43,900 bases of DNA, taken from sequence record NC_028901.1; one strand, written 5' to 3'. A program made the translations under genes and the position numbers. The DNA is from Escherichia phage slur05. Of the stretch, positions 1 through 6,805 are shown one piece after another. A model generated the notes under the pieces. That model was not told the origin of the DNA. It did no database searches and saw only the letters and a list, made by a program, of their open reading frames with translations. Positions within the stretch are counted from its first letter, which is position 1, and each line of letters begins with the position of its first letter.

Positions 1-1192
1 GTTCTCATCCCTGCTGGTCGTAGACGGCACCGGACCGGAGAAGGACCGTATTGCCGCGCTTGAGAGCGACGCTAACGTGGTTTGTGTTAACTACGATGTG
101 GTTGAGTGGCTGGTCGACTATTACGGCGATGCGTGGCCCTTTACGGTCGTTGTTGCCGATGAATCGACTAAGCTGAAAGGCTATCGTAGCAAGCAGGGGA
201 GCAAGCGCGCCCGCGCACTGGCAGCGATTGCACATAAACACGTCAAGCGCTGGATTAACCTGACCGGCACACCAGCGCCAAACGGGCTAAAAGACCTGTG
301 GGGGCAGACGTGGTTTGTCGACGGTGGCGAACGACTCGGCAGTAGTTATAAGGCATTCACCGATCGCTGGTTCATTAGCAAGCCTGTTAAGCCTGGAAGC
401 TTCACGATGCAGCACGCCCCGCTAAAGAACTCCGAGAAAGAAATACAACAACGCCTGTCTGACGTATCACTAACCGTTGACGCGGCTGAATACTTCGGAT
501 GCGACAAGCCAATCTATACGCCGGTTGTTGTGGACCTGCCGAAGAAAGCCCGCAAGATCTACGACCAGTTTGAAAGCGAGCTATTTGCCGAACTGGAAAG
601 CGGAACAGTGGAAGCGGCGAACGCGGCATCGAAGACAATTAAGTGCCTTCAGCTTGCATCCGGGGCCGTGTATAAGGTGGATGAAGACGGCGAACGGACC
701 GACAAGTGGGTGAAGATTCACGACGCGAAGCTGGACGCGCTGGAAAGTATCGTGGAGGAGTTGAACGGTGCGCCGTTGCTCGTTGCGTATCAGTACAAGC
801 ATGACCTGGCACGTCTTAAGAAGAAATTTCCGCACGGCGTTGCGCTGGGTAAAGGTAAGCAGGGCAATAAGGATATGGAAGCGTGGAACAGAGGCGAGAT
901 CCCCATCATGTTTGCGCACCCGGCATCGGCGGGCCACGGCCTTAACTTGCAGGACGGCGGTCATCACCTGGCAATCTTCTCCGATACCTGGAACTTTGAG
1001 CACTTTTCGCAGATCGTTGAACGTATCGGGCCGGTTCGCCAGATGCAAGCAGGACACCCCCGTCCGGTATTCGTCTACATTATCCAGGCGCGCGGAACAC
1101 TGGACGAACTGGTCGCCGAGCGTCGCGACAGTAAGCGGGATATTCAGGACGACTTGATGGAATACATGAAAGCTAAAAAGGCGCGCAAATGA
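1..1192 (+). CDS. SNF2-family helicase, C-terminal part (5' end outside window)
   Basis: Frame is open from base 2 with no upstream stop, so the gene starts before the window. Translation shows SNF2 motifs: VVADEST (DExx box), LTGTPAPNGLKDLW (motif III), GLNLQ and QIVERIGPVRQ (C-terminal helicase motifs). Confidence 0.75.
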   Translation, partial: FSSLLVVDGTGPEKDRIAALESDANVVCVNYDVVEWLVDYYGDAWPFTVVVADESTKLKGYRSKQGSKRARALAAIAHKHVKRWINLTGTPAPNGLKDLWGQTWFVDGGERLGSSYKAFTDRWFISKPVKPGSFTMQHAPLKNSEKEIQQRLSDVSLTVDAAEYFGCDKPIYTPVVVDLPKKARKIYDQFESELFAELESGTVEAANAASKTIKCLQLASGAVYKVDEDGERTDKWVKIHDAKLDALESIVEELNGAPLLVAYQYKHDLARLKKKFPHGVALGKGKQGNKDMEAWNRGEIPIMFAHPASAGHGLNLQDGGHHLAIFSDTWNFEHFSQIVERIGPVRQMQAGHPRPVFVYIIQARGTLDELVAERRDSKRDIQDDLMEYMKAKKARK

Positions 1193-1884
1193 CAATCTGG
1201 TCACTGTTTGACGGCAGCGGCTTGATGATTGAGCGTGCGGCTGAGATGGGGCATAAGTGTTATTGCTTCAACTACTCCGAAGCCGATCACGGGTCTTACC
1301 TTGACTACCGGATTTATGGTCGCGGAATCCGGTATCGCAATGAGTTTATCGATCTGGACTTTGTAGACCGTGCGATGAATGGCGATTTCGGTACGCCAGA
1401 TATCATCTATGCGTTTCCTCCGTGCACGGATCTGGCAGTGAGCGGCGCGCCAGCTTTCCCGCGCAAACGTGCAAAAGACCCCGCCTTTCAGCTTAAGGCG
1501 GTGCGCACCGCGAAGATCGCCGCTTACCTGGGTGACTTCTTCGAAGTGCCATATATGATTGAGAATCCGCGCAGTGTGCTTTCCACCCAGTGGCGCAAGC
1601 CGGATCACTCGTTCGACCCGTGGGAGTATGGGGGGTATCTGCCGGAGGATGACGTACACCCGCTCTTCCCGGAATACATCAACGCCCGCGATTCATATCC
1701 GAAGCTGACTTGCTTATGGACCGGCAACGGCTTCCGTATGCCAGAGAAGAAACCTGTTTTCGTTGAAAAAGGGTACTCGAAACAGTATAGTCGCCTCGGT
1801 GGTAAATCCGCTCGTACAAAATTAATCCGCTCACTCACTCCGCGCGGCTTCGCGATAGCGGTTAACGAGGAAAATTTAAAATGA
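1189..1884 (+). CDS. Mini C5-cytosine methyltransferase-like protein (231 aa)
   Basis: ATG overlaps the helicase stop (ATGA). Ordered C5-MTase-like motifs: LFDGSG (motif I), FPPCTD (PC catalytic motif), IENPR (ENV-like), RSLTPRGFA (motif IX-like). Too short to carry a normal target-recognition domain. Confidence 0.45.
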   Translation: MTIWSLFDGSGLMIERAAEMGHKCYCFNYSEADHGSYLDYRIYGRGIRYRNEFIDLDFVDRAMNGDFGTPDIIYAFPPCTDLAVSGAPAFPRKRAKDPAFQLKAVRTAKIAAYLGDFFEVPYMIENPRSVLSTQWRKPDHSFDPWEYGGYLPEDDVHPLFPEYINARDSYPKLTCLWTGNGFRMPEKKPVFVEKGYSKQYSRLGGKSARTKLIRSLTPRGFAIAVNEENLK

Positions 1885-2204
1885 ACGCTACATACGAAAC
1901 CATCGATTTTTCGGTCGCAATGACTAACCAGCTATTCACCTACGACAGCAAAACCGGAGTCATCCGTCTGAAGTCCGCCGGCTGCAAGATTGGCAACATC
2001 AATACTGCCGACGGCGGAACACGTATCGAATGCAACGGAAAGACGCTGTCTGGCGCACGCGTGGCGTGGATTATTGAGACGGGCAATACAATCCCTCCAG
2101 GCTTCGCCGTTGTGTGCCGCCAGCGCACACCAGGGCACTACGGCAACCGAATCAGCAATCTGTATTTGGTAGACGTTGCACGCGACCCTAACTTTTATGC
2201 GTAA
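1881..2204 (+). CDS. HNH_3/homing-endonuclease-like protein, probably degenerate
   Basis: ATG overlaps the previous stop. Pattern IECNGKTLSGARVAWIIETGNTIPPGFAV...GNRISNLYLV resembles HNH_3 proteins, but the expected DH/HN catalytic residues are replaced. Confidence 0.3.
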   Translation: MNATYETIDFSVAMTNQLFTYDSKTGVIRLKSAGCKIGNINTADGGTRIECNGKTLSGARVAWIIETGNTIPPGFAVVCRQRTPGHYGNRISNLYLVDVARDPNFYA

Positions 2205-2238
2205 ATTGGTTGCATAATTAGATTGGTTGCATTATCTT
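2205..2238 (+). promoter_or_regulatory. Promoter-like element: tandem ATTGGTTGCAT boxes, TTGCAT-17-TATCTT
   Basis: ATTGGTTGCAT at 2205-2215 and 2222-2232; -35-like TTGCAT 2210-2215, -10-like TATCTT 2233-2238. Confidence 0.4.
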
Positions 2239-2284
2239 AAGGGTGTCCGGTTGGACGCCCTTTTTAATACCTGGAGACAACACG

Positions 2285-2749
2285 ATGAAAATTTTACAAG
2301 AAGAGAAAAATTACTGGGCCGCGCAATGCCTCGAAGCCCGCGAACAGGCCGAACGTGTTAGCGCGCTGGCGGACACCTACCTGGCGAGCTATGAAGGCGA
2401 GGAGAAGGCGCGCAAGGAATTAGAGGAGCGCTTCGAACTGCTGTATGAGTTGATGGGTATTATGCAGCGCACCGGGTACACAACCTCCGTCGCGCTAAAC
2501 CGCATCACTGCCGAAGGTCTGCGCGAGCATTGCAAACGGGCCGAGGCGTACGTGCGCCCCAAAGGTCGCCAGTCTAAGATCGACCGTAAAGACCTGGTAC
2601 GTATGGCATGGCGCAACCCCACAAACGGCAAATTCTACCCGGATGCGCGCCCTTTAGGTGTGTCGGAGACGCAGCGATTGCAGCGAATCCTGAAAAAAGG
2701 TGACAAGATTGCCCTGTACGCGATAGATCCAGATCATGCAGAAGAGTGA
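2285..2749 (+). CDS. Hypothetical protein (154 aa)
   Basis: ORF with GGAGA 7 nt upstream of ATG 2285; preceded by promoter-like tandem ATTGGTTGCAT boxes; predicted helical/coiled protein. Confidence 0.5.
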   Translation: MKILQEEKNYWAAQCLEAREQAERVSALADTYLASYEGEEKARKELEERFELLYELMGIMQRTGYTTSVALNRITAEGLREHCKRAEAYVRPKGRQSKIDRKDLVRMAWRNPTNGKFYPDARPLGVSETQRLQRILKKGDKIALYAIDPDHAEE

Positions 2750-3245
2750 GCAAAAAGATGGCTGGCGCACGCCGCCAGCTTTATTTAAACCACTGCGTCG
2801 GAAGTACCGATTCCGTTACGATATGGCGGCAAGCGATGCCAACCACCTGCTACCGCGTTACTTCACGGCGGAGCACAGCGCGCTTGATGTGGACTGGGCA
2901 GAGTTGAAAGGGTGGAAGTGGTGCAATCCGCCGTACTCCGATCCGCTGCCGTGGGTAGAGTGCGCTGCGCACGGACGCCGGACCGTCATGCTACTGAATC
3001 AGGACACGTCGACGAAGTGGGCGAAGCTGGCCAGGAAGACTGCAAACCTGATTATTTTGCTGGACTGGCGGATCCGGTTTATACACGCCGTCACCGGTAA
3101 GGTCGGGCCGAGCAACAACAAGTGCCAGCAATTGATAATCTTTGAAGAAGTGCCGCCAAACGGCAGCGCACAAATCGAAATAATGAGCGAAGGTGAATTA
3201 AATGAATATCTTAGTCGTCGACCGAAGTCCTCGCGTCGTGGATGA
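2736..3245 (+). CDS. Phage Dam-family N6-adenine DNA methyltransferase
   Basis: N-terminal WRTPP and the NPPY motif (CNPPYSD) typical of small phage N6-adenine methyltransferases; start overlaps the upstream gene. Confidence 0.65.
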   Translation: MQKSEQKDGWRTPPALFKPLRRKYRFRYDMAASDANHLLPRYFTAEHSALDVDWAELKGWKWCNPPYSDPLPWVECAAHGRRTVMLLNQDTSTKWAKLARKTANLIILLDWRIRFIHAVTGKVGPSNNKCQQLIIFEEVPPNGSAQIEIMSEGELNEYLSRRPKSSRRG

Positions 3246-3423
3246 AATAATTAAACGCTACCAGGTTTTCCCTGGAAATAAAGTAAGGCGCGCAAGCCAA
3301 CCTCATCAATTGCTGGGCCTTGACCTAACTGGCTGGCTTGTCATGACGGCGCGTTGCCATCTTGTGTGCGACGCATTCTCGGCCCGTATTGTACGTGAAA
3401 ATTTAATGGCGGAATTAAAATGA
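3202..3423 (+). CDS. Hypothetical small protein (73 aa)
   Basis: ORF overlapping both neighbours by a few bases, consistent with translational coupling; no recognisable motif. Confidence 0.3.
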   Translation: MNILVVDRSPRVVDEIIKRYQVFPGNKVRRASQPHQLLGLDLTGWLVMTARCHLVCDAFSARIVRENLMAELK

Positions 3424-3890
3424 AACTACTGATTTGCGATTTAGATGGCGTTATCAACGGGTCAAGCAGTGTGCGCGACGACCTAGTTCCGGGGATCAAG
3501 ACTAAATCAACGTTTTGGGCGAAGTGGCATAAGGCCCACGTCCGCGAAGACATTAATTATGACATGCTGCCGTTATTGCGCATGTACGCTAAACAGGGCT
3601 TCGACATTGCGTACCTGTCAAACCGCCAGTCAGATTGCTGGGAGTCAACGAAAGAGCAATTGGATAGATTCCCGAAAGGTCGTCTGTTCTTACGCCATAT
3701 GCTTGATGACACGCCGCCTCCAGAGTACAAGGCCCGTTCCGTATTTGGCCTGGTGTGCTATGCAGAAGTTAACGAACTGGTCATCATTGACGACTGCGCG
3801 AAGAACATCGCCGCCATCAAACGGGCGTGTGAAGAACTGGTCCCGCATATTTATTCTGTGAATCTTGCAAAATTCACTTGCAACCAATAA
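3420..3890 (+). CDS. HAD-superfamily hydrolase/phosphatase-like protein
   Basis: N-terminal DxDGV motif (LICDLDGVING) and a C-terminal aspartate motif (VIIDDCAKN), as in HAD phosphatases. Confidence 0.5.
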   Translation: MKLLICDLDGVINGSSSVRDDLVPGIKTKSTFWAKWHKAHVREDINYDMLPLLRMYAKQGFDIAYLSNRQSDCWESTKEQLDRFPKGRLFLRHMLDDTPPPEYKARSVFGLVCYAEVNELVIIDDCAKNIAAIKRACEELVPHIYSVNLAKFTCNQ

Positions 3891-3906
3891 TGCAACCAAC
3901 TATATT
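3878..3906 (+). promoter_or_regulatory. Sigma70-like promoter TTGCAA-17-TATATT
   Basis: -35 TTGCAA 3878-3883, 17 bp spacer containing TGCAACCAA, -10 TATATT 3901-3906; upstream of gene 3953-4474. Confidence 0.5.
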
Positions 3907-3952
3907 AACCACATCGGGAGGCAATACCGCCTCCCCTAAAAGGAGACAAACC

Positions 3953-4474
3953 ATGAAAGCATACGAATACTGCAAAAACGCCGCCACCACTATGGAACAG
4001 CGCGGGAAAGAAAACGGCTATGACAACGCGAAAGACGAACGCAGCGCTAAACAGGTCGCCGCCGTGTTTAACGCGCTTACCGGGCGCAACCTTACCGAGC
4101 AAGAAGCCTGGACCTTCCTGATCTGCCTGAAGCTGGTGCGCCAGCACCGTAAGCACCAGGAAGATAACATCGTGGACCTGGTAGCATATGCCGCACTGCT
4201 GGGTGAGTCTTACATGACCGTGCATGACGAGATTCAGATCGATACAACGGCAGCACAATTCGACAGCCTCAAAGGCTGGCCCATCTCCACCGGCGGAACG
4301 TGGCGTCCTTCGGCATCTGCGGGCAAGACTGTCAAAGCCGCCGATTTCGGCGTCGTAGCCCAGGACGTCCAGCCTATTGTCGTGCTCACTGGCGAGGATG
4401 GGTCCAAAATCCTCATGACGCCGGAAGATTTCCGTAATATGGAAAAAACACTGGTGACTGGCGCACTTAAATAA
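3953..4474 (+). CDS. Hypothetical protein (173 aa)
   Basis: AAGGAGA RBS before ATG 3953; upstream promoter TTGCAA-17-TATATT (3878-3906); followed by a UUCG-loop hairpin at 4483-4498. Confidence 0.5.
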   Translation: MKAYEYCKNAATTMEQRGKENGYDNAKDERSAKQVAAVFNALTGRNLTEQEAWTFLICLKLVRQHRKHQEDNIVDLVAYAALLGESYMTVHDEIQIDTTAAQFDSLKGWPISTGGTWRPSASAGKTVKAADFGVVAQDVQPIVVLTGEDGSKILMTPEDFRNMEKTLVTGALK

Positions 4475-4482
4475 TGCTAATA

Positions 4483-4498
4483 GCGGGCTTCGGCCCGC
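4483..4498 (+). other. Stable UUCG-tetraloop hairpin without a U-tract
   Basis: GCGGGC-TTCG-GCCCGC directly after the stop of gene 3953-4474; no T-run, so more likely a stability/processing element than a terminator. Confidence 0.35.
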
Positions 4499-4516
4499 AT
4501 CAATGAAGGATCCACA

Positions 4517-5092
4517 ATGTACGGCGAATACGAAATATCTGGTAAACAATTCCACCTGGCGGCAATGATAGCAAGCATCGAGTTTGACCAGTGGAGATAC
4601 AAGTCTGACGCGTGCAAGCAAAGCCGTCTTGTCGGTGTGCTGGGCGAGATGTTTGCAGGCATGTACCTCGAAGGGCAGGCGGGCGGGCGTAGCTGTATTC
4701 CACAAGGTTTGCTAATGCGTACCGGCATGTTTAGCGCTAACACTATCGACCGCGGCGATATTATCATGGTCGGCAAGCGCAAGGTTAAGTCCGGCCCCGA
4801 CTACAAAGAACACATGATTGATGCCGTCTGGACATATGAGGTTAAGGCCGCAAGCGGCATACGTCGCGGACTGGTAGAGGCGCGTTGCGCTCGCGAGTAT
4901 CTCACTCGTCGAGTTGCCGGTGTTATTCTGGTGGGGGTGTCGTTAGGGCCGCAAAGCGCGCATGGCGTGATTGAGGACATCGCAGAGCCATACGTGATTG
5001 TTAATGACTGGCCTTTAGTGGAAGTGGAAGGAAAGGAATACTACGAAAGCCCCCTGGTGCGGCGCAAAATGGACTGGGAAAACTCAAACTAA
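4517..5092 (+). CDS. Hypothetical protein (191 aa), possible PD-(D/E)XK-like nuclease fold
   Basis: ORF ending at a bidirectional terminator; segment PDYKEH...IDAVWTYEVK loosely resembles a D...(D/E)xK nuclease motif. Weak. Confidence 0.35.
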   Translation: MYGEYEISGKQFHLAAMIASIEFDQWRYKSDACKQSRLVGVLGEMFAGMYLEGQAGGRSCIPQGLLMRTGMFSANTIDRGDIIMVGKRKVKSGPDYKEHMIDAVWTYEVKAASGIRRGLVEARCAREYLTRRVAGVILVGVSLGPQSAHGVIEDIAEPYVIVNDWPLVEVEGKEYYESPLVRRKMDWENSN

Positions 5093-5115
5093 AAAAAGGG
5101 GCCGCACTGCCCCTT
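5089..5115 (-). terminator. Rho-independent terminator after the tail fiber gene (also faces the convergent plus-strand gene)
   Basis: Stem AAGGGGC/GCCCCTT with loop CGCACT, followed on the minus strand by a T7 tract. Confidence 0.6.
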
Positions 5116-5119
5116 CTCG

Positions 5120-6805
5120 TTATGCTTTAGTCAGTGCCTCGACCGCGACTTTCAAATCAGCTACGGCAGCTTTCAGTTCTGCAATCTCGGCCTTGTTCGC
5201 CTCGTCACGCGCTCTTAACGCTTTAATAGCTGCCAGGCAATCCGCGACAAGCGGGTTTAAGTCTAACGTCATCATCCCCGGCACTTCGTGGTCGTGCACA
5301 TATTCCCTGTCAACCGTTGCCGCTTGCTGTGCAATGATTCCGCGTCGCGTAGATCTCTCCGGTTCGTCAAACGTGTACCGGAACAACTTAAACTCAAGGC
5401 GGTTGATGTTATCCAGTGCCGCTTCCACATTTAAATTGCCCTTAATATCCTTCACACGGGCGTCAGACTTACCAGCATCTTGCACCCGCGACCATGTTTT
5501 CGTTGTGGAGGAGACTTGCGCGTTGCCGGAGTCGTTCCAACGATAGTAGAGCGCTGGCAGCGCGCCGACCATAACCTGTGCGACACGAGAGGGCGTGTAG
5601 GCAGATTGAAATCCTGCTCCGTTTACCGGTGCCCATGTAGGGGTGCTGATCGACTGCGAGAAAAAGCAAGCCTGCGTATTTGGGGGCGCGTATGAGTATT
5701 CAATCCCAAGTCCGTAGTCCCCCGGCTTCACCGCTTCGCACCAGTTCTGCAGCGCACCATTCTCTTTAGTTCTCCAGAAAAAACGGCTTTGACGTGCGGC
5801 GAACTGTACCGCGTAGTTTTCCTCAAACTTAACATGCAGACCCGCCGCCGAAGTACCCTCGATCGGTGATCCGAAGACGGTAGCGAGATAGGTGCTTCCG
5901 TCAACTTCGTTCCAACTTCCGCCAGGTGCGTTGCCGTTAATGCCATAATCCCCAACGCCGATTGCGTTGAGGGTCTGCCGTGCCGCTGATTTGTCAGTGA
6001 GGTCGGTTAGGTTGTTACTTACCTTAGCGTATTGAGACGGGTCAACCTCGTTTTTGAATTGTTCGGCCTCGTTCCTGTACCCCTGAGCGGCATCACGGGC
6101 GGCTTGCGCGTCCGTCTTCGCGGTGTTGGCCTGATCGCGAATAACTCCGGTATCCGTCTTAATTTGGTTGGTCTGGTCCTTGATGGCCTGCGTATCCGTC
6201 TTAATCTGGTTGGTCTGCGTCTTGATGGTATTGGTGGCGTCGTGGATAGCCTGTGTGTCCGTCTTAATCTGGTTGGTGTTGTTGTAGATGACCTGCGCGC
6301 CTTCCTTGAATCCTTTAGCTTCGTTCCTGGAATTCTGCGCGGCTGCTTCCGATGCGGCGGCTTGTTGCTGCAGGTCGCGCATTTCCACTGGGTCGATCTG
6401 TTTCATCAACTGCGACAGGTATCCCCATGACATACCCTGCATCACCTGCCCGTTCGGCAGCGTGACCGTGATTTCTTCAGCGTCGCCGAAGATTGCACGC
6501 CAGTTGTTTTCATCTGCAATCATCAAGCGCAATGCTTTTTGAGCCTGTACGGTAACGCCCATCGTTGCCAGTGACATGGTATCGCGCTTAACACCATCCC
6601 ACGCAAGGCCGGTTGCCGTTGGGCCGTCGAACGGCAACACCAGCGTGAGCGCGGTTGCGCTTTCAATGGACGCGATTGCCACGGTGTATGGGACTTGTCC
6701 TACCACCAGCGTCAAGAAGTCGCCAGCTTTAAACGCAGTAAACGTTGTGCCGACCCCTACTACAGCCTTGCTATTATTCGTTACAGATAGCGTACCCGCT
6801 GCCAT
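5120..6805 (-). CDS. Tail fiber protein
   Basis: 561 aa with Gly/Thr-rich N-terminus, tandem repeats TNQIKTDTQAI(K/H)DQ, C-terminal coiled coil; sits in the tail module with a strong terminator at 5089-5115. Confidence 0.65.
   Translation of the reverse strand: MAAGTLSVTNNSKAVVGVGTTFTAFKAGDFLTLVVGQVPYTVAIASIESATALTLVLPFDGPTATGLAWDGVKRDTMSLATMGVTVQAQKALRLMIADENNWRAIFGDAEEITVTLPNGQVMQGMSWGYLSQLMKQIDPVEMRDLQQQAAASEAAAQNSRNEAKGFKEGAQVIYNNTNQIKTDTQAIHDATNTIKTQTNQIKTDTQAIKDQTNQIKTDTGVIRDQANTAKTDAQAARDAAQGYRNEAEQFKNEVDPSQYAKVSNNLTDLTDKSAARQTLNAIGVGDYGINGNAPGGSWNEVDGSTYLATVFGSPIEGTSAAGLHVKFEENYAVQFAARQSRFFWRTKENGALQNWCEAVKPGDYGLGIEYSYAPPNTQACFFSQSISTPTWAPVNGAGFQSAYTPSRVAQVMVGALPALYYRWNDSGNAQVSSTTKTWSRVQDAGKSDARVKDIKGNLNVEAALDNINRLEFKLFRYTFDEPERSTRRGIIAQQAATVDREYVHDHEVPGMMTLDLNPLVADCLAAIKALRARDEANKAEIAELKAAVADLKVAVEALTKA
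6100..6300 (-). repeat. In-frame tandem repeats (~33 bp units) inside the tail fiber gene
   Basis: Repeated CCGTCTTAATCTGGTTGGTCTG-type units encoding TNQIKTDTQAIxDQ. Confidence 0.6.

Follow-up and report, generated by a model that had tools for sequence, protein, structure and literature searches.

A probable compact cytosine-5 DNA methyltransferase in the replication-module operon of Escherichia phage slur05

What is the small protein encoded directly behind an SNF2-family helicase in Escherichia phage slur05, and does it do anything other than methylate cytosines? The stretch that we analysed, here called the window, comprises 43,900 nucleotides of this phage (NC_028901.1), and the open reading frame (ORF) in question lies at 1189-1884 on the plus strand and encodes 231 amino acids (aa). 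A first-pass annotation made from sequence alone had noted C5-methyltransferase catalytic motifs in this protein and the lack of space for a normal target-recognition domain, and had proposed that such a helicase-coupled minimal fold is unusual and could be a modification or anti-restriction module rather than a standard methylase. We find it very probable that the ORF encodes an orphan, S-adenosylmethionine (SAM)-dependent DNA cytosine-5 methyltransferase of a compact phage family known as "Dcm-like", which occurs in numerous enterobacterial phages. This family is already known: it is large, it is annotated in many records, one of its members has been characterised, and the slur05 protein is an ordinary member.

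Motifs, fold and family of the 231-aa protein

The catalytic motifs are readily located. Motif I is represented by LFDGSG at residues 6-11 (F7-D-G9-S-G11), which is invariant in 42 close relatives, and motif IV by P77-P78-C79, where the presumed catalytic cysteine, C79, is matched to the PC of M.HaeIII and to that of seven canonical C5-methyltransferases, a set that we put together from records of E. coli and phages. Motif VI corresponds to E125-N126-P127 on a strand spanning residues 122-127, a pairing (ENP to ENV) that is of low confidence in hhalign. Close to the C-terminus, the block LGGKSxRTKxIRSLTPRG (203-220) includes RSLTPR at 214-219. The profile and structure searches that the first-pass annotation had suggested as a check also point to a methyltransferase: phrog_757, labelled "DNA methyltransferase", matches the protein at 9.8e-83, and a Foldseek search with an AlphaFold2 model (predicted local distance difference test score, 90.5) returned DNMT3A/B and HaeIII at 1e-6 to 2e-5. 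The model has the three-dimensional fold of a C5-methyltransferase, in agreement with the motifs.

Relatedness to the canonical enzymes can also be followed at the level of profiles. The family profile matches M.HaeIII in register over the stretch from motif I to motif IV, and the hhalign comparison of the family with the seven canonical enzymes gives E 2e-5 over the same motifs. The Pfam profile of the canonical enzymes, PF00145, is matched by 22 of the 42 close relatives when E values up to 10 are admitted (best 1.3e-6). Three of these relatives (P0021, P0026 and P0057) score 28.5, 24.7 and 25.4 bits, above the gathering cutoff of 22, with matches confined to profile positions 4-94 (motifs I-IV), and the 231-aa protein itself stays below that threshold. 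M.HhaI, M.HaeIII and E. coli Dcm, all members of PF00145, have motifs I, IV and VI in common with the phage protein, as well as the fold and the predicted chemistry. They are unlike it in being 300-470 aa long, in having a target-recognition domain of ~80-120 aa, and in carrying clear motifs VIII, IX and X. DNMT3A and DNMT3B are the best structural matches, at 13-16% identity and with domains of ~280 aa; DNMT3 acts as DNMT3-DNMT3L/3B3 oligomers at CpG.

The earlier observation that a normal target-recognition domain does not fit holds up. In canonical enzymes this domain lies between motifs VIII and IX, and in the 231-aa protein only ~40 residues separate K172 from R214, whereas the corresponding motifs of E. 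coli Dcm lie ~120 residues apart. Canonical phage C5-methyltransferases have 302-360 aa. Beyond the catalytic core, only residues ~186-202 are variable; they occupy the slot where canonical enzymes have their target-recognition domain, and longer members of the family owe their extra length either to a C-terminal tail or to an insertion of ~25-45 aa at residues 190-202. A scan of these longer members found no fused domains.

The 231-aa protein belongs to a sizeable family. Its homologues form 2,880 clusters when grouped at 90% identity, which puts the gene well beyond a chance reading frame, and grouping at 50% identity leaves 1,914 representatives. Matches occur in 1,510 phage records, including Dhillonvirus, Drexlerviridae, rV5-like and T4-like myoviruses, and Klebsiella siphoviruses. 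Sister Dhillonvirus records name the gene "C-5 cytosine-specific DNA methylase" or "Dcm-like C5 cytosine methyltransferase", and the slur06 record labels it "hypothetical protein". With so many carriers and such routine annotation as a cytosine methyltransferase, the fold can hardly be called unusual. Since the lengths of family members cluster at 210-260 aa, the short form is how these proteins are natively built and does not result from truncation. A 214-aa member was also found in Pseudomonas phage 99-2, a filamentous single-stranded DNA phage of the Tubulavirales (positions 2339-2983 of locus L087).

Conservation follows the catalytic core and extends beyond it. Ninety-nine representatives of 205-265 aa, taken at the 50% identity level, align end to end at 32-55% identity, and among them conservation is 97% for C79, 99% for E125, 94% for N126 and 98% for P127. 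The positions kept in at least 90% are P77, C79, G86, K93, E125, N126, P127, R136 and P144, together with D168, Y170, K172, T174, W177, P185, R214 and G220 further towards the C-terminus. Over the same identity range, the SAM loop of the wider family has (F/Y)D(Y/H)(T/S)G in place of FxGxG. Position 28 is asparagine in the 231-aa protein and in the clade of phage KarlJaspers, which shares the FDGSG loop, and aspartate in 91% of the wider family.

The experimental anchor for the family comes from that clade. Over its full length the 231-aa protein is 54% identical to the Dcm-like protein bas06_0055 of KarlJaspers (E 3e-86). The two are alike in size (231 and 236 aa), in their catalytic residues and in the C-terminal LGGKS..RSLTPRGFA block. 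KarlJaspers belongs to a different phage family, and there the methyltransferase gene is followed by two small genes and a gene for a DUF3987 protein, with no SNF2 helicase. Phage K42, a strain 95% identical to KarlJaspers, has been studied as a trigger of the retron Ec86. All K42 mutants that escaped the retron had disruptions in a 711-bp Dcm-like gene, expression of this gene alone from a plasmid led to more 5-methylcytosine (5mC) on the multicopy single-stranded DNA (msDNA) of Ec86, as detected by LC-MS (liquid chromatography coupled to mass spectrometry), and a C82A/E128A/K175A/K176A quadruple mutant was inactive (bioRxiv 10.1101/2023.08.16.553469). These residues correspond to C79, E125, K172 and L173 of the slur05 protein, the last being a difference between the two enzymes. 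That a homologue makes 5mC on msDNA speaks against the idea of something other than a standard methylase. According to a reference list, the preprint on K42 reportedly appeared later in Cell Rep (2024;43:114857).

Catalysis, target recognition and role

Because the motifs and fold are conserved, and because the quadruple mutant of the 54%-identical homologue is inactive, the enzyme most likely follows the standard C5 route. In this scheme, C79 of the PPC loop would attack C6 of a flipped-out cytosine, E125 of ENP would hold N3/N4 of the base, and the methyl group would be moved from SAM bound by the F-x-G-x-G loop. The short and partly variable segment at ~186-202 would stand in for the large target-recognition domain, flanked by the basic conserved blocks YPK172, LGGKSxRTK and RSLTPRG, which presumably touch the DNA.

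Several points weigh against the assignment or limit how far it can be taken. The 231-aa protein has no match in Pfam, NCBIfam or PADLOC, and sequence similarity to the canonical enzymes ends after motif IV in hhalign. C-terminal hhalign runs against canonical enzymes, which had to be forced, were not significant, searching with only the last 36 residues brought no information, and a PDB sequence search (phmmer) gave a chance kinase match only. Neither QxRxR (motif VIII) nor GNxV (motif X) is found in any family member, the longer ones included. At the place of motif VIII the 231-aa protein has the conserved D168-x-Y170-x-K172-x-T174, where hhalign sets YPKLT opposite PQHRER of the canonical enzymes in a non-significant pairing. 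RSLTPRGFA resembles motif IX (RRLTPxE), yet no conserved block follows it up to the C-terminus, the place where motif X would close the fold, and it can be read as either. That the protein is a working-type enzyme is predicted from its motifs and its homologue. The CCWGG target cited for K42 was assumed from the name "Dcm" and is backed only by mutation of the msDNA site, without mapping (bioRxiv 10.1101/2023.08.16.553469). Finally, in phenotyping of the BASEL phages, methyltransferase genes showed no association with resistance to restriction in related Drexlerviridae, and Dhillonviruses were more sensitive to restriction-modification than Queuovirinae.

A CCWGG-like target is possible for the compact family. 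Homology does not allow the specificity to be deduced, since similarity to E. coli Dcm is at the level of motif IV only (25 columns around the motif, E 0.28) and the N-terminal and recognition domains of Dcm are lacking. The N-terminal domain, PF18284, is absent from the 231-aa protein, which is thus not a full-length orthologue of Dcm. The label "Dcm-like" implies CCWGG, although the recognition domain of Dcm is missing. A more radical reading, which we consider unlikely, is that DNA recognition differs from that of all solved C5-methyltransferases, with a segment of ~15-20 residues and the conserved basic C-terminal blocks taking the place of the target-recognition domain, perhaps in DNMT3-like oligomers. 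If so, specificity or substrate would differ from CCWGG (relaxed sites, hairpin or replicating DNA), and the repeated placement of the gene beside an SNF2 helicase, in Dhillonvirus and in Kagunavirus-like phages, could reflect action at the replication fork.

The distribution of sites in the window is relevant to the role of the enzyme. CCWGG occurs 145 times (observed/expected, 0.92) and is essentially not avoided, and GATC, with 161 sites, is mildly under-represented (0.76). Several six-base palindromes are almost missing, as judged from observed and expected counts: GGCGCC (0 and 20), GCCGGC (1 and 20), AAGCTT (1 and 18), TCCGGA (1 and 14), CAGCTG (1 and 14) and GGGCCC (0 and 11). This pattern would fit a mixed strategy, in which rare sites are avoided and frequent ones are methylated. 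Presumably made alongside the replication proteins, the methyltransferase would, together with the phage Dam enzyme, most likely methylate replicating or progeny phage DNA at short sites that are frequent and not avoided in the genome, and such methylation could protect against matching restriction enzymes. As a side effect, an enzyme of this kind may trigger retron Eco1/Ec86, as shown for the homologue. CTAG is also strongly under-represented in the window, with 17 sites where 53 are expected.

As an orthologue of phage cytosine methyltransferases that are already annotated, the protein carries little weight as a discovery. The standard Pfam, NCBIfam and PADLOC scans miss the gene, so automated pipelines would under-call an abundant family. 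Enzyme engineering would profit from a specificity map and a DNA complex of a C5-methyltransferase as small as this one, and so would the prediction of which phages trigger retron Eco1.

Competing explanations and the SNF2 helicase

Could the conserved fold serve another reaction, another substrate or no reaction at all? CmoX (PDB 8yf3) is a protein of 333 aa that depends on a neighbouring phage CmoA, and a CmoX-like enzyme, here using host CmoA, would transfer a carboxymethyl group from carboxy-S-adenosylmethionine (Cx-SAM) to yield 5-carboxymethylcytosine instead of, or besides, 5mC. Cx-SAM is supplied by E. coli, and CmoX has an arginine (R350) where HhaI has Asn304 of motif X, to which R214, conserved in 93% of the family, might be equivalent. 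However, the CmoX signature is SPPC and that of the 231-aa protein FPPC; the K42 homologue raised the 5mC signal; and in Oekolampad, a fully annotated and closely related Dhillonvirus, the annotation includes neither a CmoA nor an amide ligase gene, whereas 4,257 of 5,615 CmoX candidates have such a gene nearby. We judge a carboxymethyltransferase of this type exceedingly unlikely. As to another substrate, a DNMT2-like tRNA cytosine-5 methyltransferase, or an enzyme for single-stranded or hairpin DNA and not duplex phage DNA, would agree with the only substrate demonstrated for a homologue, a hairpin single-stranded DNA that a dcm+ host barely methylates, and with the family member in a filamentous phage. 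The msDNA target nevertheless sits in a base-paired stem (bioRxiv 10.1101/2023.08.16.553469), the family occurs in replication modules beside Dam, and DNMT3 and bacterial DNA methyltransferases score above DNMT2 against the 231-aa protein, which leaves an RNA or single-stranded DNA enzyme with hardly any probability. We give equally little credence to a catalytically dead fold that would act by binding, to DNA or to a host factor, and might serve as a decoy against restriction. Motifs VIII and X that cannot be recognised, the lack of a Pfam match, and an asparagine at position 28 are what such a protein might show, but all the catalytic residues are conserved at 94-99% in the family, and the active enzyme of the KarlJaspers/K42 type has asparagine at position 28 too.

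The remaining alternative concerns not the enzyme but its neighbour, and would make the methyltransferase and the SNF2 helicase a functional unit, a methylase coupled to ATP-driven remodelling and comparable to the SNF2-methyltransferase fusion of DNMT5, with the overlap of the two genes ensuring stoichiometric co-production. In the window the helicase gene (1-1192, plus strand; phrog_62, 2e-124) is represented by its C-terminal ~390 codons, its N-terminus lying outside the window. In Oekolampad, the complete orthologue matches PF00176 above threshold (1.6e-11, 44 bits), and PADLOC describes the helicase as ZorD/DpdE/DrmD-like. As the first-pass annotation had noted, the 231-aa ORF overlaps the helicase stop; the ATG of the one and the stop of the other share an ATGA at 1189-1192, and an in-frame TAA at 1174-1176 makes a longer start impossible. 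Most junctions of the operon overlap likewise, so this overlap is not special, and four shared bases are normal operon packing. Among 80 related viral loci that we compared, a homologous SNF2 helicase lies within 6 kb of the methyltransferase gene in only 15, and on opposite sides in two lineages. In Dhillonvirus the helicase precedes the methyltransferase, and in Kagunavirus-like phages it follows, as in Raoultella phage RP180 (locus L018, 6001-8613), where the two genes overlap by 20 bases and a gene for a Toprim-domain protein comes after. Other loci have different neighbours: in 27 loci of the Drexlerviridae type, the methyltransferase gene is followed by two small genes and, ~0.85 kb downstream, by that for the DUF3987 protein, and lambdoid prophage loci carry Dam, DUF6378, methyltransferase, NinG, RusA and Q. 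The K42 homologue, moreover, methylated DNA when expressed alone. Neither a fusion nor an SNF2 adjacency conserved across the family was found, and we reject the proposed helicase-coupled module; a functional unit of the two proteins is very unlikely. An independent cytosine-5 methyltransferase that happens to be encoded beside the helicase in some lineages accounts better for these loci.

Other genes of the operon

The genes described here are not peculiar to slur05. The first 6 kb of the window is 100% identical to Escherichia phage slur06 (LN881731), and ~150 other Dhillonvirus genomes match it at 85-93%. [quoted passage not shown] The ORFs of the island were found where the first-pass annotation had placed them, all on the plus strand, and several are packed as tightly as the helicase and the methyltransferase. 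The stop of the 231-aa ORF and the start of the next ORF share an ATGA at 1881-1884, and further overlaps join the genes for the 154-aa protein and Dam (2736-2749), Dam and the 73-aa protein (3202-3245), and the 73-aa protein and the HAD phosphatase (3420-3423).

The ORF directly downstream of the methyltransferase (1881-2204) encodes 107 aa and was correctly described as a degenerate HNH_3-like protein. It matches phrog_99 (3.3e-16), and its Pfam HNH_3 match (E 0.082) is below threshold, at 13 bits against a cutoff of 24.8. When it is aligned to a real HNH_3 homing endonuclease, AHR stands opposite GAR and IDH opposite CRQ, such that both catalytic histidines are lost, and the ORF ends early, without the C-terminal half. 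Conservation of this relic among Dhillonviruses is nevertheless 92-93%, and it may thus serve in a role other than that of a nuclease.

The Dam-type N6-adenine DNA methyltransferase (2736-3245) is secure, with an NPPY motif and a PF05869 match of 122.7 bits (1.7e-35; cutoff, 28.1); its match to TIGR01712, at 87 bits, is just below cutoff. The assignment of the HAD-superfamily phosphatase (3420-3890), which resembles the phosphatase domain of polynucleotide kinase/phosphatase, is likewise supported, by DLDGV at residues 7-11 and by phrog_415 (1.2e-30); its HAD-clan Pfam matches are all below threshold.

The island had also been said to hold three unknown proteins. Unknowns are indeed present among the downstream genes, but the count was wrong, since four of the proteins are non-obvious. 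One of them, of 154 aa (2285-2749; an alternative GTG start at 2243 gives 168 aa), has no assigned function and no match in Pfam, NCBIfam or PADLOC. It matches phrog_10530 (7e-96), which covers residues 15-168 of the long form. The PHROG label "DNA ligase" of this protein has spread into several GenBank records, and its N-terminal half looks coiled-coil. Another, of 73 aa (3202-3423), also without an assigned function, has phrog_10685 (1.9e-41) as its sole match. The DUF6378-domain protein (3953-4474) has 173 aa when read from the ATG at 3953, the longest ORF starting at a TTG at 3878, and matches PF19905 at 4.9e-9 (36.8 bits) and phrog_9871 from residue 26. The fourth protein (4517-5092), of 191 aa and found in Dhillonvirus-like phages only, is a predicted PD-(D/E)xK nuclease, with an E...D...ExK signature on a restriction-endonuclease-like fold. 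PDB sequence searches with the HNH-like, DUF6378 and 191-aa proteins gave no match. The PHROG labels "DNA ligase" for the 154-aa protein, "polynucleotide kinase" for the HAD protein and "phosphofructokinase" for the DUF6378 protein find support in no other library, and we did not adopt them.

The DUF6378 protein accompanies Dam and the compact C5-methyltransferase in two settings that are unrelated, Dhillonvirus and lambdoid nin regions (loci L042, L050-L054, L056, L061 and L066), and this recurring company hints at a link with DNA methylation. A GC-rich hairpin with a 10-pair stem and, behind it, a minus-strand T-run lies at 5093-5118, between the operon and a convergent tail-fibre gene, and is likely a terminator. 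The tail-fibre protein itself (5120-6805, minus strand) has a central run of imperfect NQIKTDTQAIKD-type repeats.

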